From IMG/VR virus record IMGVR_UViG_2547132274_000005, positions 1 to 6,997 of that record: 6,997 nucleotides of DNA. One strand, 5' to 3'. Below the pieces are notes generated by a model. The model saw only the letters and a program-made list of their open reading frames with translations. It ran no database searches and had not been told where the DNA came from. Origin of the DNA: a virus (taxonomy: Duplodnaviria > Heunggongvirae > Uroviricota > Caudoviricetes). Shown here one piece after another: positions 1 through 6,997 of this stretch (its first letter is position 1; the number at the start of each line of letters is the position of its first letter). The position numbers were made by a program, and so were the translations under genes.

Positions 1-297
1 CCCGCCAGCAGTGCGATGCGCCAGCATTGCCGCGAATACGGAGGCCGGGGAGTCGTAATACGCCAGCAGTGATTCGCCGTGTGGTGTCAGGCAGTGCAAC
101 GCCAGCCCGTGTGGTGTGAAGTCCACGCGGTAGCAGTCGTCTACTGTGAAATAAAGGGTGTCCGCATTCTCCGGTTTTGTGGTGCGTGCTCTGTTGTCAC
201 GACCACGGATGTAGAGATCAAATAATCCCTGAAGAATGGGAGCCAGACGGGTGTCCTGTGTGCGCACCCATCTTGTGAAGTCATGAGCGTCAATCAT
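1..297 (-). CDS. Hypothetical protein, N-terminal 99 aa only (MIDAHDFTRWVRTQDTRLAPILQGLFDLYIRGRDNRARTTKPENADTLYF...); CDS continues beyond window start
   Basis: Minus-strand frame is open from the ATG at 297 to position 1 (99 codons, no stop). It is absent from the ORF track because no stop lies in the window. Weak SD-like AAGAGA sits about 9 nt upstream. Same frame and orientation as the upstream 76-aa gene. No family recognised. Confidence 0.5.
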   Translation of the reverse strand, partial: MIDAHDFTRWVRTQDTRLAPILQGLFDLYIRGRDNRARTTKPENADTLYFTVDDCYRVDFTPHGLALHCLTPHGESLLAYYDSPASVFAAMLAHRTAGG

Positions 298-369
298 GCT
301 GCAATTCTCTTTACTACAGATGTGCGAAGGCCTCCCGCCGCAAGGTGCAGGAAAGGCCCGGAACAGGAA

Positions 370-600
370 TTAATGGAGTTTGTTTTGCTGCTGGATGAGC
401 TGCTGAAGCTCGCGCAGATCATCCGCCAGATAGCTGAAAACAGAGGCGGAATAGCTGTTCGATAGTGCGTGACTGCGTTCATGCAGCATATTGATGTGCA
501 TGATTTGCGCGACACGGAATGCGCGGAAAAGTCTGCGGTTGATTTCAGTCTGGATGTGACGACGCTCCGCGATAGCGCGGTGCTGTTTGCGGTTTGCCAT
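370..600 (-). CDS. Small basic protein, 76 aa (MANRKQHRAIAERRHIQTEINRRL...), function unknown; possible nucleic-acid-binding regulator
   Basis: ATG at 600 is preceded by GAGG at about 7 nt spacing. The N-terminus is arginine/lysine-rich and the C-terminus looks heptad-like. Track ORF 370..600. Confidence 0.55.
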   Translation of the reverse strand: MANRKQHRAIAERRHIQTEINRRLFRAFRVAQIMHINMLHERSHALSNSYSASVFSYLADDLRELQQLIQQQNKLH

Positions 601-632
601 GGTGTGGCCTCTGTAGTTGCAAGTTTTGAAAA

Positions 633-667
633 CTCACCATCCAGAGGTTGCAATTCTGGGTGGTGAG
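633..667 (+). other. Stem-loop: 13-bp stem (one G.U pair on the + strand transcript) with 9-nt loop GGTTGCAAT
   Basis: 633-645 ctcaccatccaga pairs with 655-667 tctgggtggtgag. The single non-Watson-Crick position is a G.U pair on the + strand and an A/C mismatch on the minus strand, a weak hint that the + strand RNA is the one that folds. The loop carries the repeated motif. Confidence 0.45.
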
Positions 668-830
668 ACGTACGGGGTTGCAACCACCGGCAACTACAGA
701 AACCGGCCCGACCGAAGTCGGCCCCGTACGCCCCACCATAATTCGTGTGCGAAAAAGACGTGGCGATACGGTACGCACAAAAAAACCGCTGGCGCGGTTG
801 TGCGCTGTAGTTGTCAGCGGGGGTTGCAAT
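646..830. repeat. Three copies of motif GGTTGCAA(C/T)(C) with palindromic core TTGCAA: 646-654, 676-685 (perfect 10-bp palindrome GGTTGCAACC), 822-830; a fourth TTGCAA at 617-622
   Basis: Direct reading of the sequence. TTGCAA is not clustered like this anywhere else in the window. Copies 1 and 3 sit in 9-nt loops of local hairpins (the stem for copy 3 is only 4 bp, 818-821 with 831-834). Confidence 0.6.
779..798 (-). terminator. Putative rho-independent terminator for the leftward operon
   Basis: On the minus strand: ACCGC-GCCA-GCGGU hairpin (5-bp GC-rich stem) followed directly by UUUUUUU (+ strand A-run 779-785). It lies about 150 nt downstream of the stop of the last operon gene at 939. 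Confidence 0.45.
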
Positions 831-938
831 CCCGGCACTCGTTTTATGAGGTGCAGCGGAAATGTAACCTGACTGATTGCGGCATGGCAAGCGGTTTTTT
901 TGTGTATACATGGGTTAACCTTCTGGCAGTGACACGGA

Positions 939-1085
939 TTACACGGCGTACAGGCCGCGAGCGTGACACCACACTTCAAACATTCGTTTCACAATTTCGC
1001 GGCAGTAGTAGCCATCAACATCCCTTGTCAGGTCATAGCGATTGCCGTAACGCTGGCGCATCCATCGTTCAAAGGCTTTGTGCAT
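939..1085 (-). CDS. Small protein, 48 aa (MHKAFERWMRQRYGNRYDLTRDVDGYYCREIVKRMFEVWCHARGLYAV), function unknown
   Basis: ATG at 1085 is preceded by GAGGA at about 6 nt spacing. The track ORF 939..1139 begins at an upstream non-ATG codon; I prefer the ATG with the strong SD. Confidence 0.5.
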   Translation of the reverse strand: MHKAFERWMRQRYGNRYDLTRDVDGYYCREIVKRMFEVWCHARGLYAV

Positions 1086-1122
1086 GTTCTGTCCTCTGGC
1101 TTTTTGTTTATTCGTTATATTT

Positions 1123-1146
1123 CCGGCCAGCGGTTTCACTGGCCGG
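1123..1146. other. Intergenic GC-rich stem-loop (8-bp stem CCGGCCAG/CTGGCCGG, 8-nt loop) between the SPFH gene stop and the 48-aa gene
   Basis: Perfect inverted repeat read directly. No U-run follows on the minus-strand transcript, so it is probably not a terminator; it may be an RNA processing or stability element. Confidence 0.35.
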
Positions 1147-1152
1147 GTTGAA

Positions 1153-1977
1153 TCACTTCACCGGAACAAACGGAACAGCGGTATTACTGGTCATGTATTG
1201 CGGCAGCGTGCCGTTCCATTTGTTGATTGCTTCCAGCTCCATAACACCGGGGTTCTGGCGCAGAGCTTCACCGCGTAAACGAATAGCATCGGCTTCAGCC
1301 TGGGCTTTTGTGCGAATGGCATCAGCCTGTCCGGCTGCTTCTGCGCGTAGCATGTTGGCTTCTGCTTCGCGTTGCTTGACTTCCTGCTCGCGTTGCAGGG
1401 TTTTCTGGTTTGCCGTGACTTTGGCGTTAATGCTGTCGATAACGGTTGGCGGATATTCCGGTTTACCCACATAAGAGAGGCTCATGACCTGAATACCGAT
1501 GGGGGTCATCTCTTCCTGAATATCTTTAAGTGCTGAATCCAGCAGTTCAGACTTACCACCGTCGATAAACTTATCGGTGGTCATTTTGCTGGCCAGTCGG
1601 TTGAGTGCATCGGCGATCTTCTGGCGCAGGTCAGTGTCGGTAATGTCATCCACGCCTTTGCGGTAGGTCTGAAACACTGTGGTAACTTTGGATGGATCAA
1701 CCTTGTAAGCCACGCCGATGTGATAGCCGATGGTTGTGCCGTCACTCATCTGGAAGCTGAACGGCTCATCGTAGGTCTTCATTTGCTTGAAGGTGGGGAA
1801 GATGTAAACCTCTGTATTCCAGCCAGTCCAGTAGCGGCCAACGCCAACCACTTCGCCGACGCCTTTGTCGTCGCCCAGTTTGTTGACTTTGATGCCTACA
1901 TTGCCCGGCTCCACGCGGTCACAGCCAACCAGAAGTGTGGTCATCAGGAGAGGGATGAGTGGTAATAGTTTTTTCAT
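1153..1977 (-). CDS. SPFH/band-7 (stomatin-prohibitin-flotillin-HflK/C) domain lipoprotein, 274 aa; predicted inner-membrane lipoprotein
   Basis: N-terminal signal MKKLLPLIPLLMTTLLVGC with lipobox LVGC; the +2 residue after Cys is Asp, the E. coli inner-membrane retention signal. The body is a globular beta-rich domain followed by an Ala/Glu/Gln/Arg-rich coiled coil (QREQEVKQREAEANMLRAEAAGQADAIRTKAQAEADAIRLRGEAL), typical of SPFH proteins. The start ATG overlaps the stop of the upstream 70-aa gene (ATGA). Confidence 0.85.
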   Translation of the reverse strand: MKKLLPLIPLLMTTLLVGCDRVEPGNVGIKVNKLGDDKGVGEVVGVGRYWTGWNTEVYIFPTFKQMKTYDEPFSFQMSDGTTIGYHIGVAYKVDPSKVTTVFQTYRKGVDDITDTDLRQKIADALNRLASKMTTDKFIDGGKSELLDSALKDIQEEMTPIGIQVMSLSYVGKPEYPPTVIDSINAKVTANQKTLQREQEVKQREAEANMLRAEAAGQADAIRTKAQAEADAIRLRGEALRQNPGVMELEAINKWNGTLPQYMTSNTAVPFVPVK

Positions 1978-2186
1978 TGTTTGGTTTCCATAATTGCTTT
2001 GATGTAGTTACTGAAAAAGCGGACAACGCCCGCCGGGTACAGCAAGGCGACAAAAATGCCCAGCAATACCAGGAAGGAGCTGTCTGATGAAATCATTCTG
2101 GGAAGTAGCCCCACATACAGAATGAGAGAAACGAGGACGCATACCAGCGCCCACATGTATGCGCGAAACCAGGTCTTTTTGTTCAT
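1974..2186 (-). CDS. Small integral membrane protein, 70 aa, two predicted TM helices; partner of the SPFH lipoprotein (NfeD-like role possible)
   Basis: Two hydrophobic segments (WALVCVLVSLILYVGLL and FLVLLGIFVALLYPAGVV). Its stop overlaps the start of the SPFH gene. The SD upstream of the ATG at 2186 is weak. Confidence 0.65.
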   Translation of the reverse strand: MNKKTWFRAYMWALVCVLVSLILYVGLLPRMISSDSSFLVLLGIFVALLYPAGVVRFFSNYIKAIMETKQ

Positions 2187-2197
2187 ATCGCGGTTCT

Positions 2198-2497
2198 TTA
2201 CTGGTTAAGGAAAAAATCAAAAACCTTGTCGATGCGTTGCAGTAGCTCTCGTTGCATTGCTTCCGGCGTTTCTGGTTCACCAGGCGAACCCAGTGGTGCG
2301 CAGAAATCAGCGATTTCATGATGGAGCGTCAGGCGAATGGCTGGAGCCATGGTTCTGGCGTGCTCCAGCTCATCCAGCAGTGCCAGCACAGCGGACGGCG
2401 AGAGCATTGCGTGAAACGCTAGTAATTTTTGATGCGTTGCCATTCGTTGCGAGTCTGTCGCCAGTTCGCGTAGTTCCTGGTGGTTGATGGTGCTCAT
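2198..2497 (-). CDS. Hypothetical acidic protein, 99 aa
   Basis: Track ORF. The ATG at 2497 overlaps the stop of the upstream gene (ATGA coupling). No recognisable motif. Confidence 0.6.
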   Translation of the reverse strand: MSTINHQELRELATDSQRMATHQKLLAFHAMLSPSAVLALLDELEHARTMAPAIRLTLHHEIADFCAPLGSPGEPETPEAMQRELLQRIDKVFDFFLNQ

Positions 2498-2739
2498 GCT
2501 CTGGCTTCCTTCAGTAGTTGGTTAAACATGTTGGTAAGTGGATTGCCGCACCCGAACGGCATCGGGTTTATCTGGTAAGAAAAGCGACCGCCTGTTTTGC
2601 GCTCTTTTCTTATGACTGAACCGCTGCGCCAGAGTCGGCGTAACTCCGCATTAATGGCTGTGGTTGGGGTATTTAGCGCGGCAGCGATTTCTCCACCGCT
2701 ACAACCCGGATTGGCGGCGATGTAGTCCAGAATGGTCAT
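2494..2739 (-). CDS. Small winged-helix-like DNA-binding protein, 81 aa (putative transcriptional regulator)
   Basis: Pattern SGGEIAAALNTPTTAINAELRRLWRSGSVIRKERKTGGRFSYQI resembles helix-turn-helix plus beta-hairpin wing. The ATG at 2739 overlaps the stop of the upstream gene. Confidence 0.6.
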   Translation of the reverse strand: MTILDYIAANPGCSGGEIAAALNTPTTAINAELRRLWRSGSVIRKERKTGGRFSYQINPMPFGCGNPLTNMFNQLLKEARA

Positions 2740-2966
2740 CTTCGTGGCTCCTGTACCCTGGTCGTTAGTTGCCTGCTTTTTTTGCGCAGAACCTGTACAT
2801 ACATCACGTTAGTAGCCGTGTAATGCTTCCCGTTCTTAAGCCAGATGTGATGAATACCGGGCTCGCTGCGGGAGGGGGCTGTTCTGTCGTGATCGATCAG
2901 GCTGTCTTCCACGTCGTATTCAATGCCGCCCGATGTGAAATGTACGGTTAAGAATGATTTGATCAT
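2736..2966 (-). CDS. Hypothetical protein, 77 aa (MIKSFLTVHFTSGGIEYDVEDSLIDHDR...)
   Basis: ATG at 2966 is preceded by a strong SD AAGGAG at about 7 nt. The track ORF extends to 3068 in a frame that overlaps the 137-aa gene, so I trimmed it to the SD-supported ATG. Confidence 0.6.
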   Translation of the reverse strand: MIKSFLTVHFTSGGIEYDVEDSLIDHDRTAPSRSEPGIHHIWLKNGKHYTATNVMYVQVLRKKSRQLTTRVQEPRR

Positions 2967-2994
2967 CGCTGTGCTCCTTTGGTTTTTCATGGGG

Positions 2995-3408
2995 TTATGC
3001 GTTAAATGGGGAAGAGGTTGCCATGTCGATGAACGCAATCCGGTCGCGTCTGATGATGTGTACATCACTCAGCGGTTCGCTCTCATTTGCCGGAACCGCA
3101 GCAATCATGTAGCTCCCCTGCAGGTCTGCCAGGATGATGTATTCCTGTTGTGGGTTGTTGATGATAAAGACCCGTTTCCCAATGCTGGGGGAAGAAGTGT
3201 TGGTGCCGGCTAATTGAGCTTTGAGAGTGCTGATTTCGTTGTTCAGGCTTTCAATAAGTCCAGCAGCACTTGCGGTGACTTCTGCTATAGCCATTGAACG
3301 AACATAAAAGGGAATAAGCCCTTCTCTCAATGCCTGCCTGGCTAATGCATCTTCCATTTCTGATATTTTTTTCAGTTTGGTGATGGTGACTGTATCTTTA
3401 GCGTTCAT
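2995..3408 (-). CDS. Hypothetical protein, 137 aa; N-terminal helical/coiled-coil region and C-terminal beta-rich region
   Basis: ATG at 3408 is preceded by GAGGA at about 7 nt. Track ORF. Confidence 0.7.
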   Translation of the reverse strand: MNAKDTVTITKLKKISEMEDALARQALREGLIPFYVRSMAIAEVTASAAGLIESLNNEISTLKAQLAGTNTSSPSIGKRVFIINNPQQEYIILADLQGSYMIAAVPANESEPLSDVHIIRRDRIAFIDMATSSPFNA

Positions 3409-3499
3409 TTTGTATCCTCGTTATTTGTGTGTGCGAATACCTCCGCGAGTGCGGATTGTTTTCACGTTTTCTTATTTAATCTGGTGTTTAGTTGTGCTG

Positions 3500-3613
3500 T
3501 TATTCGTCGGGGAAATAACGTTCAATCTTTTTCACTGAATGAATAATTCGCACAATCCCAATGGCGCAGACCACCGAAATAATCAGAACAAGCCAGGACA
3601 TAAATATACTCAT
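3500..3613 (-). CDS. Small hydrophobic peptide, 37 aa (MSIFMSWLVLIISVVCAIGIVRIIHSVKKIERYFPDE), single predicted TM helix
   Basis: Not in the ORF track (under 60 aa). The ATG at 3613 overlaps the stop of the upstream 80-aa gene (ATGA) and is preceded by GGAGA at about 7 nt. The hydrophobic core is followed by a charged tail. Confidence 0.45.
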   Translation of the reverse strand: MSIFMSWLVLIISVVCAIGIVRIIHSVKKIERYFPDE

Positions 3614-3852
3614 GCGGCGTTCTCCAGTTCGTATGGTTCAATAATGCACCCTTTACACAAAAGCCCCACCACAGTTTCGAGTTCTTTATATGCGTAAAAA
3701 TCCCTTCGAATTTTGGCGTATTCCCGAAGGTGGCGAACCGATTCTGTCAGCGAGTTATGAGCTAGGGGAACAGCAGAATGACCGTACTCCGCTACATCAA
3801 AATGATATTGCTCAAGTGCTTTGTTAATGAGAGTTTTATATTCTTTGTCCAT
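3610..3852 (-). CDS. Hypothetical protein, 80 aa
   Basis: ATG at 3852 is preceded by AAAGGA at about 7 nt. It lies 11 nt downstream of the previous gene's stop. Confidence 0.65.
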   Translation of the reverse strand: MDKEYKTLINKALEQYHFDVAEYGHSAVPLAHNSLTESVRHLREYAKIRRDFYAYKELETVVGLLCKGCIIEPYELENAA

Positions 3853-3863
3853 CGCAATATCCT

Positions 3864-4142
3864 TTAATCTGCTTTCTGAATTTCAGCTTCTGAATCCATG
3901 CAGATAATTTCGATGTATGGTTCATCGCTATTAATCTGACGTGCCTTTTCAGCTTTGCTAATGATTTCTCGTACGGTCTGGTACGGAAGCTCCACAGTCA
4001 GGCGCGTACCGTTCAGATAAACGTAAGTAGCTGCGTTTTTTTCGGATGGAACAACTCCGTCAATGGCTGATGCGCGTAATAACAGTTCACCGCGAAAATC
4101 AATAAAACGGATAAATACACCTTGTGCATGCTCTTTGGTCAT
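3864..4142 (-). CDS. Hypothetical protein, 92 aa (MTKEHAQGVFIRFIDFRGELLLRASAIDG...)
   Basis: Internal ATG at 4142 is preceded by AGGTG at about 5 nt. The longer track ORF (to 4202) would overlap the upstream gene. Confidence 0.55.
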   Translation of the reverse strand: MTKEHAQGVFIRFIDFRGELLLRASAIDGVVPSEKNAATYVYLNGTRLTVELPYQTVREIISKAEKARQINSDEPYIEIICMDSEAEIQKAD

Positions 4143-4152
4143 AAAGCACCTG

Positions 4153-4503
4153 TTATAAATCAGTCTGTTTAATAAAACTTTGTCCGCGAAGCAGACGATC
4201 AACCGTGCGTAGTGCTTCGTATAATGTGAAATCCTGCCCGAACTGATTGTCGCCGCTGCTTAGTGCAAAAATGCGATTTCCGGTAAACGGATTGCGTGGG
4301 CATTTATGGACCACGATTCCAGCTTTCTCAATCAGCCAGGCATGCTCGCCGATTTGTTTTACTGGGTGGCCATCCGGCGTTGCGTGTGTTTCGCTCAGGC
4401 TGTAACGAGAGCTGCTGCGTGATGCACTGGTAGCGAAACGGTTAGCATGGCGTTCTGCCCCGTTGCGGAAGCGTTGCTGTGAAGAATTACGTCGTTGCTT
4501 CAT
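4153..4503 (-). CDS. Hypothetical basic protein, 116 aa; first gene of a promoter-proximal sub-operon (alternative start at 4551 would give 132 aa)
   Basis: ATG at 4503 is preceded by AGGA at about 9 nt; the ATG at 4551 has no SD. The N-terminus is Arg/Ser-rich. Confidence 0.5.
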   Translation of the reverse strand: MKQRRNSSQQRFRNGAERHANRFATSASRSSSRYSLSETHATPDGHPVKQIGEHAWLIEKAGIVVHKCPRNPFTGNRIFALSSGDNQFGQDFTLYEALRTVDRLLRGQSFIKQTDL

Positions 4504-4645
4504 ACAAAAATATCCTGCTGCTGTTGCGAATTTGTGCCGGGTTTTAGCCATGTCCGGCGCATGGTTTTGTGGTATTTTTCCGGCGCCCGCAGTCTTGAAG
4601 GGGCTGTAAAGGGCGCGTGTTTAACCAACCACAAATGAGGTTTAT

Positions 4646-4882
4646 ATGACTCAAAAATCAGTACCTGTTTATACGCCCAGTGAACTTGAGTGTCTGAGTG
4701 TTAATAATCATGCCTGCCTACGTTTCCATTATGATTTAGGTAACGATACTGAGTTACCTAAAGCTGGAGAGTTGTTTACGGCCTTAACTCTTGAGCAAGC
4801 AAAAGACCTTGTTGTTTTTCTTCAGCAATACATCTCAAAGGCTGAGATTACAGAATCCTTAAGCTCTAAATCACGTCATTGA
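4646..4882 (+). CDS. Hypothetical protein, 78 aa, encoded opposite to the surrounding operon (moron-like)
   Basis: ATG at 4646 is preceded by GAGG at 5 nt. The ORF is visibly AT-richer than its neighbours (by eye, not computed). Its 3' end overlaps the 3' end of the convergent 163-aa gene by 7 nt. Confidence 0.5.
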   Translation: MTQKSVPVYTPSELECLSVNNHACLRFHYDLGNDTELPKAGELFTALTLEQAKDLVVFLQQYISKAEITESLSSKSRH

Positions 4883-5367
4883 TTTATGAATCCGAGGAAC
4901 TTCCCTTTTTTGAGGTACCGCCGGTTCATTTTTACTGAGTCAACTTGAAGGTCTTGACTTTCTTTTATATCGGGGGTACAAGCCCCCGATATATTTCGTG
5001 GCTCAATTAGCATTGATTTGTTATTCAGAATCTGCCCGTAAAGTTCCAGTGCTTCTTCAGCAGGAAAACGGAGCATGACGCCGTATATTGGTTCTAAAAT
5101 CATTCCAATCGTCTCTTTGACGTCATCTCGACAAAAATGACCGTATTCATCGTCAGGATGCAGGGTGACACTTTTCAAATCTTCGCCATTCTGAAGCTTT
5201 GATTTAAATGCCATCAGGTCAGCGAACGTTCTGTGTAATTCGTGGTAGTCAACGCTGATTTCAATCTGCGGTTTGCCCGGAAAAACCAGCAAAAGCTTCT
5301 GGTGTGGTTTTTCGTTTTTCAGGGCTTCCAGTCGTTCCAGTAGTGCTTTATCTTCGTGGTTTGTCAT
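4876..5367 (-). CDS. Hypothetical acidic protein, 163 aa (181 aa if the TTG at 5421 is used)
   Basis: Track ORF 4876..5421 begins at TTG. The first in-frame ATG is at 5367, with only a weak GGGA SD. Second gene of the leftward operon after the Cox-like gene. Confidence 0.55.
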   Translation of the reverse strand: MTNHEDKALLERLEALKNEKPHQKLLLVFPGKPQIEISVDYHELHRTFADLMAFKSKLQNGEDLKSVTLHPDDEYGHFCRDDVKETIGMILEPIYGVMLRFPAEEALELYGQILNNKSMLIEPRNISGACTPDIKESQDLQVDSVKMNRRYLKKGKFLGFINQ

Positions 5368-5448
5368 TTCAAAGTCCCAGCCACAGCAACCATGCGTCTC
5401 GTTGTTCTTTCGGGCGTGCAAAGAATGCGTCGACGCTCTTGATGTTGC

Positions 5449-5976
5449 TCATGATAAATCGCTCTCGTGATCTCTGCGTCTTTCCAGTTTTGAGCTTCTA
5501 CCCATATAAACCCGTTTTCCGTTAACGGTCTGGCAGTCTTCTTTGTCGGCTGGAGAGAACTTTCTTTTCTGGCGGTCATACGTCCAGTAGCTTTTCCAGT
5601 TGTGCCATTCTGGTGGCTCAAGCTCTGGTAACTCGTCAGCAAGTGCGTCCCATTCTTTGGTGTTAAACCACCATACGCCGTCTGAATCTTCATCTTCCGG
5701 GTTTGTGCGCGTTTTGTGTCCCGGCATTTGACCGCGATTAAGGGCCATGCGCAGTGCGGCTTTTGTTAGCCCAATATATGCCGCGCCTCTTTCCAGAGAG
5801 CAAAGCCCGGCGATCGGACCATCCAGCCGTAAATTTGCTCCTTTTTTGTAAGAGCGCTTTTTCTTGTTTTCTTCGTGTTCGTCGTTGTTGGCGGCATCAA
5901 TGGATCCGCTGAGTGTGTCACTTTCCTGAAGTGGTTGGTGGTCAGATAACTCTTTATCGGCAATGAAGTCCCGCAT
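5449..5976 (-). CDS. Cox/excisionase-like DNA-binding protein, 175 aa, with N- and C-terminal extensions relative to a typical ~90-aa Cox
   Basis: ATG at 5976 is preceded by AAGAGGA at about 6 nt. The central segment LERGAAYIGLTKAALRMALNRGQMPGH...GVWWFNTKEW resembles the HTH and following aromatic motif of P2 Cox as I remember it. The gene is divergent from the C-like repressor, as in the P2 switch. The N-terminal ~55 aa are acidic and low-complexity. Confidence 0.5.
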   Translation of the reverse strand: MRDFIADKELSDHQPLQESDTLSGSIDAANNDEHEENKKKRSYKKGANLRLDGPIAGLCSLERGAAYIGLTKAALRMALNRGQMPGHKTRTNPEDEDSDGVWWFNTKEWDALADELPELEPPEWHNWKSYWTYDRQKRKFSPADKEDCQTVNGKRVYMGRSSKLERRRDHESDLS

Positions 5977-6079
5977 TTGTTATCCTCTTGTGTTGGTGCG
6001 CTTGTCGCGCCTTGTGATGGTTTGTTTTGGTTTGTTTACTTCACCTTGTGGTGAAGAATGAAGAGAGGATACTCATCGT
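5977..6079. promoter_or_regulatory. Divergent lysis/lysogeny switch region between the Cox-like and C-like genes, with direct repeats and one inverted repeat
   Basis: CTTGTG(N)TGG direct repeats at 5987, 6011 and 6045. Tandem GGTTTGTTT(T/A) at 6019-6038. Inverted repeat CTTCACC-ttgt-GGTGAAG at 6039-6056. Candidate rightward sigma70 promoter TTGTGA (6012-6017), 17-nt spacer, TTTACT (6035-6040). Confidence 0.45.
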
Positions 6080-6421
6080 ATGGTGAACATGTCAAGAGAT
6101 TATGCCAAAAAACTAAAGGCGATCAGAAATGCGGAAAAACTTACCCAATCTCAGTTTTCGCAAGTAACGGGGGTTTCTGTAGGGACTATAGGAAATTATG
6201 AGTCTGGATATAAACCTGCGCGAATTGAGGTTGTAGAAAAAGTAATCCAAGTCGAGCGATTCGAAAAATACACTATGTGGATACTTCACGACAAAACATT
6301 TCCCGCTGCCGGGCAGGTTGCTCCGGCTCTCTCTCTTGATGGCTCCATTCAGTCGGAGGACGATCAGGCTTCAATCGGCATTACCCAAAAATCACCCCGA
6401 TCAGGCCGCAATGTTGGCTGA
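6080..6421 (+). CDS. P2 C-type immunity repressor-like HTH (XRE family) protein, 113 aa
   Basis: HTH signature LTQSQFSQVTGVSVGTIGNYESG. Remembered similarity to P2 C (YESG, F.KYT.W, GQ.APAL). SD GAGAGGA lies upstream of the ATG at 6080. Positioned immediately upstream of int in the same orientation, as in P2. Confidence 0.75.
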   Translation: MVNMSRDYAKKLKAIRNAEKLTQSQFSQVTGVSVGTIGNYESGYKPARIEVVEKVIQVERFEKYTMWILHDKTFPAAGQVAPALSLDGSIQSEDDQASIGITQKSPRSGRNVG

Positions 6422-6490
6422 CTTTACACATTGAGCGAATTACATCTCGCAAGGAGTGTTTAGTTAATTTATCCGTTGGAGGGGCTAATC

Positions 6491-6997
6491 ATGTCGATTA
6501 AGCAACTCAAAGACGGACGTTATCGGGTTGATGTCAGACCTCAGGGGGCGGAAGGAAAGCGGATTCGGAAAACCTTTACCCTGAAATCAAAGGCTCAGGA
6601 GTTTGAGAAGTATGTGTTACAGAACTTCCATGACAAGCCATGGCAGGCTAAGCCAGCTGATCAGCGGCGATTATCAGAGCTGCTTGATGCGTGGTGGATG
6701 CTTGACGGGCGTAATCAGGCTTACGGGGATAGCTACAGGGTCAGGCTAGGGAAGGTTATTCGTGAAATGGGAGATCCTCGCGCCAGTCAGATGACGCGAA
6801 AATTTATGCTTGAATATCGGTCAGAGAAATTACAGGCCGGATTAATGCCGTCCAGTATTAATCGTGATTTATGCGTTCTGTCTACCATGTTCACGGTGCT
6901 GATTGAAGCTGAGGTCTTTCACAACGCGAACCCTGTACGCGGTATACGTAAACTGAAAGTTCAGAACACAGAGATGGCCTTTCTTTCTGATGATGAG
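6491..6997 (+). CDS. int: Tyrosine recombinase/integrase, P2 Int family, N-terminal 169 aa; CDS continues beyond window end
   Basis: ATG at 6491 is preceded by GGAGG at 8 nt. The frame is open to the window end. The N-terminus MSIKQLKDGRYRVDVRPQG...GKRIRKTF...PSSINRDL...MFTVLIEAE closely parallels P2 integrase as remembered. It is absent from the ORF track because no stop lies in the window. Confidence 0.9.
   Translation, partial: MSIKQLKDGRYRVDVRPQGAEGKRIRKTFTLKSKAQEFEKYVLQNFHDKPWQAKPADQRRLSELLDAWWMLDGRNQAYGDSYRVRLGKVIREMGDPRASQMTRKFMLEYRSEKLQAGLMPSSINRDLCVLSTMFTVLIEAEVFHNANPVRGIRKLKVQNTEMAFLSDDE

Follow-up and report, generated by a model that had tools for sequence, protein, structure and literature searches.

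A swappable small-gene cassette in the early region of a P2-like prophage, with a hairpin in the opposing reading frame as its likely terminator

The DNA considered here is a stretch of 6,997 nucleotides (nt), positions 1 to 6,997 of the IMG/VR virus record IMGVR_UViG_2547132274_000005 (Caudoviricetes), and is referred to below as the window. Judged by annotated relatives and family scans, it represents the early region, in reverse orientation, of a P2-like prophage of the P88 type. Within its leftward early operon lies a plus-strand gene of 78 amino acids (aa), p78, that converges on a minus-strand open reading frame (ORF) of 163 aa, p163, and the p163 frame contains a GC-rich palindrome. This palindrome is most likely, on comparative grounds, an intrinsic terminator and the 3' end of the p78 mRNA. 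As a whole we consider it probable that p78 belongs to an accessory-gene (moron) cassette seated in a fixed expression slot of the prophage, and that the hairpin is the p78 terminator. The features of this unit and of the gene that faces it are as follows.

4532-4566, plus strand: invariant element of ~35-40 nt with two overlapping inverted repeats, recognized by its invariance and covariation
4570-4578, plus strand: extended -10-like element TGG-TATTTT (TGn + TAnnnT), at a conserved fixed offset
4579-4645, plus strand: leader and Shine-Dalgarno sequence of the slot gene, conserved among P88-type relatives to 4639
4646-4882, plus strand: p78, a 78-aa accessory (moron) gene, supported by coding selection and homologues
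4883-4965, plus strand: putative structured 3' untranslated region (UTR) of p78, from RNA fold and divergence; on the minus strand, p163 codons 135-163
4966-5001, plus strand: terminator-like hairpin, TATATCGGGGG-tacaag-CCCCCGATATA (4966-4993) followed by TTTCGTGG (4994-5001), from fold, stem conservation, and tail asymmetry
5002-5367, minus strand: conserved core of p135/p163, residues 1 to ~122, the second early-operon gene after cox
4876-5001, minus strand: C-terminal tail of p163, apparently cassette-derived, residues ~123-163 plus stop, running through the hairpin and the p78 3' UTR

The palindrome has perfect arms of 11 nt (TATATCGGGGG at 4966-4976 and CCCCCGATATA at 4983-4993) and a 6-nt spacer. 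The initial annotation had placed a perfect palindrome in the p163 codons for ISGACTPDI, which is correct except that it gave the arms 10 nt; they are 11 nt long and span 4966-4993. As RNA, the sequence forms a 12-base-pair (bp) stem, including one G.U pair, with a 4-nt loop. The fold reaches -21.8 kcal/mol on the plus strand (z score -4.7), a value matched by none of 200 shuffles, and the minus strand also folds stably (-18.8 kcal/mol, z -4.2), as had been predicted for both transcripts. The hairpin stands 84 nt past the p78 stop codon, at the right edge of the cassette, and with a stem of 11-12 bp containing six G-C pairs, a loop of 4-6 nt, and a position co-directional with p78 it has the stem of an intrinsic terminator. 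The plus-strand RNA from 4883 to 5010, which includes the 3' UTR, folds at -45.6 kcal/mol (z -5.1).

Comparison of four cassette variants shows no change in the 2 x 10 nt of the stem, six of which are third-codon positions in the p163 frame, while three to five of the six loop nucleotides are changed (TACAAG, TACAGG, TGGCAG, and CAATGC), along with the residues they encode. The sole change adjacent to the stem, C to T at 4983 in locus L022 and in the Citrobacter locus L005, leaves a G.U pair in the plus-strand RNA but an A.C mismatch in the minus-strand RNA. The sequences that follow the stem are also asymmetric: the plus-strand tail UUUCGUGGCU contains five U in ten positions, three of them contiguous (the Citrobacter tail is UUUUCUGG), versus a single U in ten in the minus-strand tail AAAGAAAG.

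Hairpins unrelated to this one follow the plus-strand ORF in other cassette types. Five of 12 independent types have an uninterrupted stem of at least 9 bp within 115 nt of the ORF stop; the background rate for such a stem, taken over 130-nt windows from related loci, is 2.3%. In none of the eight independent hairpin types does the minus strand fold more stably than the plus strand, and their tails together contain 48 U on the plus strand versus 24 on the minus strand. The hairpin of the L002 cassette is significant on the plus strand only (z -3.7 vs -1.4), and the p78 homologues of Serratia and of Escherichia coli JP538 are followed by unrelated hairpins with clear T-tracts. Stem conservation, strand bias, and a plus-strand tail richer in U thus lend comparative support to one of the roles first proposed for the hairpin, that of a plus-strand terminator. 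Rfam 15 covariance models gave no match at an E-value of 1 or better between 4400 and 5100, the interval that holds the hairpin and the upstream element.

The gene ahead of this hairpin is preceded by the Shine-Dalgarno sequence GAGG (4637-4640), 5 nt ahead of its ATG. Relative to the Citrobacter copy (92% aa identity), p78 carries 25 substitutions distributed 4/4/17 over the codon positions, with a ratio of nonsynonymous to synonymous substitution (dN/dS) of 0.06, and the protein is still 66% identical to the Serratia copy despite saturated synonymous sites. The comparisons with relatives, in which the ORF is conserved as coding, identify p78 as a genuine gene under strong purifying selection at the protein level. 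Its AT-richness, at first judged by eye, is borne out by a GC content of 38.8% and a third-position GC content (GC3) of 29.1%, the lowest in the window (window GC, 48.7%; neighbours, GC 43-50% and GC3 45-50%). Also as first described, no other plus-strand gene is present from cox to where the operon ends on the left, either in the window or in annotated relatives, and p78 overlaps p163 by 7 nt (4876-4882). A second perfect 10-bp inverted repeat, within p78 itself (4735-4744 and 4753-4762; TTTAGGTAAC and GTTACCTAAA), is not conserved in the Citrobacter copy and is probably due to chance.

The cassette can be delimited by comparison with L001 and L002, both of them E. coli prophages located at dmsA. 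Both match the window at 89-97% on either flank (94-97% over the leader); their homology ends on the left at 4638-4639, within the Shine-Dalgarno sequence, and resumes on the right at 5005 in L001 and 5039 in L002, and at 5024 in a further locus, L023. The start position of p78 is occupied by a 155-aa ORF of the ECs1072 family in L001 and by a 60-aa ORF in L002, both unrelated to p78. In phage P88 the site is empty: cox adjoins the DUF4761 gene with no insert, and homology to the window ends at 4512. Conversely, the window shares 4646-4993 without a single difference (100% identity) with an E. coli draft genome (L020), whose p163 core is 3.7% divergent and whose nucleotide homology ends near 5353, before cox; an identical cassette between differing flanks indicates recent lateral exchange. 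Strains that carry this cassette include E. coli GCA_044018775.1 and Citrobacter sp. TSA-1 (CP053573). Based on the replacement of p78 in L001 and L002, the empty site in P88, and the deviant composition, p78 is, as far as sequence comparison can tell, an acquired and swappable gene within a replaceable cassette, which agrees with its initial description as an acquired moron and answers the question of its presence or absence in otherwise identical elements. An expression entry for ECs1072 was too indirect and was not used.

Exchange of this cassette also bears on the position of the hairpin within a gene. The p163 ORF starts at an ATG at 5367 (181 aa if the upstream TTG is used) and stops at 4876-4878, and the hairpin encodes its residues I126-S-G-A-C-T-P-D-I134. 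The family to which it belongs comprises 33 clusters, mostly of 135 aa, whose alignment is conserved to about residue 121. Beyond this core, the tails differ by cassette type, with lengths of 14, 42, and 80 residues in the 135-, 163-, and 203-aa forms, respectively; the commonest form, of 135 aa, lacks the window tail, and the 203-aa form has a different one. The last residues of the 135-aa form, VPEKISGTGVK, are likewise encoded by the hairpin of its own cassette.

Selection on the two parts of p163 differs. For the window type the core has a dN/dS of 0.18-0.28, while that of the tail is 1.66 against L005 and 0.51 against L022, with a dS of only 0.12 and codon-position counts of 6/2/3. From residue 124 onward the AlphaFold2 predicted local distance difference test score (pLDDT) is ~30. 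Most simply, the final ~40 codons of p163 can be read as cassette DNA that is approximately neutral at the protein level (dN/dS ~1). The hairpin would then lie in p163 because the minus-strand frame runs on into cassette DNA. Its placement inside the 163-aa gene therefore holds for the ORF and not for the family core, and what looked like an oddity would be explained as a by-product of cassette exchange. Annotators should note that the last ~40 codons of p163 probably do not represent functional protein.

The sequence upstream of p78 belongs to the backbone. A block GTGCCGGGTTTTAGCCATG(C/T)CCGGCGCATGG (4534-4564) is followed by TTTTGTGG and then by the -10 hexamer TATTTT (4573-4578). It contains two overlapping inverted repeats (IR): IR-A, GCCGGG (4536-4541) with TCCGGC (4553-4558), and the inner IR-B, AGCCATG (4546-4552) with CATGGTT (4560-4566). 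Thirty columns are invariant in 14 aligned loci from ~8 genera, with diverging flanks. IR-B is complementary in all 69 true instances, with compensatory pairs AT/AT (50 instances), AC/GT (17), and CT/AG (2). The element is present in 13 species-representative genomes and 76-106 viral contigs, and also in phages SEN4/5, vB_YenM_42.18, and vB_YpM_115/117; strains that carry it include members of Pectobacterium, Yersinia, and Salmonella, and all occurrences are in P2-like phages apart from a few chance matches (one genome, and three in a relaxed viral scan). Besides the window copy (4532-4580), it was marked in loci L001-L017, L024-L026, and L028-L124. We rejected a conserved minus-strand leader peptide (MAKTR...) starting in the motif, as its length ranges from 6 to 24 codons, with a stop after 6 in Citrobacter; this variation places the constraint on the motif at the nucleotide level.

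At a fixed offset past the motif, TGnTAnnnT is retained in 65 of 68 unique sequences, and its non-critical positions vary. The extended -10 element at 4570-4578 is thus the putative promoter of p78, with a predicted transcription start near 4584-4587; no -35 match was found upstream of it. The initial annotation had credited p78 with its own promoter. A conserved promoter-like element is indeed present upstream, but it belongs to the slot: in P88-type relatives the exchange boundary falls at the Shine-Dalgarno sequence, and the same leader precedes unrelated ORFs. A candidate 5' leader hairpin at ~4583-4616 probably straddles the predicted transcription start.

A small plus-strand ORF lies 19-184 nt downstream of the element in 94 of 98 loci. 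These occupants are single ORFs of 56-159 aa from ~19 families, and none has an annotated function. Literature searches on the motif sequence, a P2 cox-region hotspot, P2-like regulatory regions, and phage HQ103 returned nothing on the slot or the element, so the slot is apparently a conserved and undescribed expression site. Possible roles for the element include an operator, an RNA switch in the early transcript, and a recombination anchor.

Locus L023 (Logan SRR25035168; 3810-3960) represents a different state of the slot. It has a degenerate copy of the motif that keeps TGGTATTTT, and its plus-strand ORF has six codons, after which a strong hairpin, CCGTGCGGGA...TCCCGCACGG, and TTTCC are still present. 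The slot is filled instead by a 117-aa gene on the operon strand.

The promoter activity, termination, and timing of expression that we infer from these comparisons would combine as follows. A sigma-70 extended -10 promoter (~4570-4578), with the dyad element ahead of it, would fire against the early lytic operon and into p78. Phages with different repressor types share one and the same motif, so this promoter is probably independent of the phage repressor, and p78 would accordingly be expected to be expressed in the lysogen. Plus-strand transcription would end at the hairpin (4966-4993) and its A/U-rich tail, which would spare p163, cox, and the switch region from antisense transcription; as no U-tract follows the hairpin on the minus strand, early-operon transcripts should pass. 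The ORF, 3' UTR, and terminator would be exchanged as a unit by recombination, bounded on its left side by the conserved leader and on its right side by the 3' part of the p135-family gene, with the consequence that the p135-family frame would run ~40 extra codons, hairpin included, to a stop in the end of p78. On induction, the two units would converge over ~350 nt, which could dampen distal early-gene expression. Antisense interference of the p78 unit with the operon, which the initial annotation had suggested, is topologically plausible.

Several observations weigh against the interpretation of the hairpin as the terminator of a slot-driven cassette. Whether read from the end of the full stem (UUUCGUGG) or from that of the GC core (AUAUAUUU), the tail is an imperfect U-tract; a generic terminator scan did not call the site, and a generic -35/-10 scan did not flag the extended -10 element. 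The strict stem is missing in seven of 12 cassette types, and the stability of the hairpin on the minus strand makes an effect on early mRNA possible. A first hairpin survey, by free energy alone, was not significant; its control, in which 52% of 130-nt windows reached -13 kcal/mol, invalidated it, and it was replaced by the strict-stem test reported above. Other observations concern the p163 tail. In three cassette types the p135-family ORF (tails of 14, 42, and 80 codons) meets no stop before it reaches or enters the end of the plus-strand gene, which is longer than random read-through in AT-rich DNA would give, with a joint probability that we roughly estimate to be of order 1e-4. The nucleotide divergence of the tail from L005 is 13%, the same figure as for the p78 3' UTR, and its dS of 0.12 is likewise well below the proportion of synonymous differences (pS) of ~0.4 in neighbouring genes. 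The open frames hint that the tails, or translation across them, may be under selection; together with the low divergence and the strong plus-strand fold of 4883-5010, they make both nucleotide-level constraint on the tail and selection for continued translation possible.

A more far-reaching possibility is a conserved, dedicated accessory-gene expression site in P2-like phages of the Enterobacterales, in which the double dyad and extended -10 element would drive any occupant from the ~19 families, p78 among them, convergently with the lytic operon. The dyad would then act as a switch, as an operator or as an alternative RNA hairpin, coupling moron expression to early-operon read-through toward the replication genes, and this coupling would be the reason why translation of the p135-family gene stays open across the cassette. 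We put this forward tentatively, as a possible but rather doubtful arrangement.

It is improbable that the hairpin instead acts on the minus-strand early-operon RNA, whether as a processing site, as a stabilizer of the 3' end of a cox-p163 message, or as a pause or roadblock that tunes the genes from DUF4761 through gpA. Such a role would suit the stable minus-strand fold and the position of the hairpin in a translated minus-strand ORF, where the operon enters ~380 nt of untranslated antisense before DUF4761. However, the minus strand lacks a U-tract, the A.C mismatch in L022 and L005 affects its innermost pair, and both the L002 hairpin and the stability bias in the eight hairpin types point to the plus strand. 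In addition, p78 homologues that have no p163 neighbour still have a downstream hairpin.

The open frames could also mean that the variable p135/p163 tail and the convergent small gene are a co-evolving pair, such as cognate partners, in which case the tail would be a real protein segment and the hairpin either tolerated or doubly constrained. Each cassette type does bring a different plus-strand gene together with a different tail (135-, 163-, and 203-aa forms), the minus-strand ORF is always open up to or into the end of that gene, the 80-aa tail of the L001 type resembles genuine coiled-coil protein sequence, and tail nucleotides are more conserved than synonymous sites elsewhere. We nevertheless find this pairing unlikely. 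The window-type tail has a dN/dS of 1.0-1.7 against L005, codon-position changes of 6/2/3, and a low pLDDT, the amino acids encoded by the loop vary freely (ACT, TAT, or SIA), and the p78 family occurs in at least three backbones without any p135-family gene.

The initial annotation also raised the palindrome as a recombination site. As a site of cassette exchange, it would set the right end of the module by forming a cruciform or by serving as a target for a recombinase or template switching. The L001 homology breakpoint lies 11 nt from the palindrome, and loop turnover exceeds that of the surroundings (five of six positions, vs 13% locally). However, this turnover fits the neutral synonymous-site rate (pS ~0.4), the right-hand breakpoints vary by partner, as given above, and other cassette types have unrelated hairpins or none. 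The left boundary is an ordinary conserved leader, and no recombinase is associated with the site. We therefore hold a recombination function to be very unlikely. That the palindrome arose by chance or purely from coding, with no function of its own, can be dismissed as most improbable: it does lie within an ORF, and folds of -13 kcal/mol or better are common in the control, but no shuffle folds as well, long uninterrupted stems are rare in the background, and the stem is invariant even at third-codon positions, in contrast to the loop, where the encoded residues vary.

Profile searching across 1.8 billion representatives recovered seven further small p78 homologues of 72-82 aa, and the family shares the motifs AC(L/I)RFHY and LP..G.LFT.LT.EQA.D..FLQ.YI and a C-terminal His. 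Its members occur in at least four backbones. They stand beside a p135/p163 gene in the window, L020, L046, L022, and L005; the Serratia homologue is alone between cox and a P2 B-type gene, and that of E. coli JP538 has a different small membrane protein as its neighbour. In E. coli 81009 (L105; NZ_CP021179, 2410-2950) the homologue lies between a Cox-family gene and the C repressor and int genes, is co-oriented with C and int, and is followed by a weak hairpin only. By analogy with pE of phage 186, the slot promoter could feed repressor and int transcription in this locus.

Neither p78 nor p163 has an above-threshold match in Pfam, NCBIfam, PADLOC, or PHROGs, and no PADLOC defence-system model was matched by either. 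A medium-confidence structure prediction makes p78 a small soluble protein of three strands and a long C-terminal helix. Below threshold, p78 resembles the BssS/YceP family of biofilm regulators (Pfam PF13991), with a score of 14.9 bits versus a gathering threshold of 27, which leaves it outside the family. Four of ten p78-family members match BssS in this sub-threshold range (best E-value, 0.0025), and an hhalign comparison with BssS gives a probability of 13% with an E-value of 0.002. The two proteins are similar in size (78 aa for p78 and 84 aa for BssS), match co-linearly over ~55 residues, and share LR(F/L)HY and LT..A+..(I/V)..L motifs and a C-terminal ...R-H, but BssS is chromosomal and p78 phage-borne. 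We take this resemblance as a weak lead for p78 and not as family membership. Our best guess, held with low confidence, is that p78 acts on host physiology, possibly in a BssS-like manner.

The genes that frame the slot in the window were assigned from family scans and annotated relatives.

6080-6421, plus strand: C repressor with a helix-turn-helix domain
5449-5976, minus strand: Cox-family protein
4153-4503, minus strand: DUF4761 gene

Past cox, the gene order is the 163-aa gene, p78, DUF4761, and then DUF4754 and more minus-strand genes; in relatives, the same minus-strand series leads to the replication endonuclease gpA. A single canonical -35/-10 match was found between 4300 and 6200, TTGACA-18-TATCCT (10/12) at 6066-6095 on the minus strand, where it overlaps the start of the C gene. 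This match could plausibly be the early promoter Pe, set face-to-face with the repressor gene in the manner of P2 and 186.

Two Rfam matches above the gathering score lie in the ORF-poor left part of the window, both on the minus strand: a C4 antisense RNA (656-743, 82 bits) and an isrK Hfq-binding RNA (779-854, 53 bits). They are located beside a 76-aa minus-strand ORF (370-600), annotated in relatives as 'derepression protein'. Two overlapping genes occupy 1153-2186 on the minus strand, one for a 274-aa SPFH/Band-7 lipoprotein (PHROG 200) and one for a 70-aa membrane protein (PHROG 1130, category 'moron'). Both genes are present in P88 and L020, while L001 and L002 have other genes at this position, so this interval looks like another variable cargo site of the early operon.

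Compared with the cassette, which is itself fairly ordinary, the conserved slot element is the more novel by-product of this analysis. The element and promoter core recur ahead of many unrelated small ORFs in ~100 P2-like prophages of roughly ten enterobacterial genera, and the invariant element is a candidate regulatory device. If the slot proteins prove to be lysogenic-conversion, exclusion, or anti-defence factors, the slot would be a compact and easily searchable source of them.

Accessory and defence hotspots are known in P2-like phages, namely the gpA-gpQ interval with old/tin and the tail-gene hotspot with Z/fun (PMC9122126, PMC13586616), and 8% of P2 defence systems lie between integrase and primase, an interval that includes the p78 slot (PMC13586616). 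Neither of these papers mentions cox or the p78 site. Like the hotspots, the p78 slot is a small, high-turnover locus between conserved P2-like genes. It differs from them in its position, from cox to B or DUF4761, in its single small ORFs, and in the lack of a PADLOC match for p78 and p163.

In topology only, the slot also resembles pE of coliphage 186, a CII-activated establishment promoter in the early lytic operon that fires toward cox/apl, the repressor, and int: each has a promoter, in the slot a putative one, that faces backward within the early operon, and a dyad centred near -38. In contrast to pE, the slot promoter is predicted to drive an accessory ORF, with a transcript that would terminate at the hairpin, 1 kb short of C. 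The window has no CII homologue, and the half-sites of the dyad are spaced 17 bp apart versus ~20 in 186. The proposed use of one fixed promoter for whichever of many unrelated small ORFs occupies the site recalls the Pc promoter of integrons. However, the slot has no integrase and no attC or attI, holds a single cassette, and apparently exchanges it by ordinary recombination in flanking homology.

The closest counterparts are the morons of lambdoid phages such as HK97 and HK022, reportedly described by Juhala, Hendrix, and colleagues in 2000. Like them, p78 is an extra gene between genes that are adjacent in relatives, and its composition is AT-rich and deviant. HK97 and HK022 morons have a sigma-70-type promoter upstream and a stem-loop terminator downstream and can be expressed from a repressed prophage, all of which have predicted counterparts in p78. 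Unlike these morons, the p78 unit converges with, and is embedded in, the early lytic operon, and its putative terminator is overprinted by the frame of its neighbour. The p78 unit thus agrees with the classical picture of a moron except in one respect: the promoter and leader appear to be fixed in the backbone, and only the ORF, its 3' UTR, and the terminator hairpin are exchanged.

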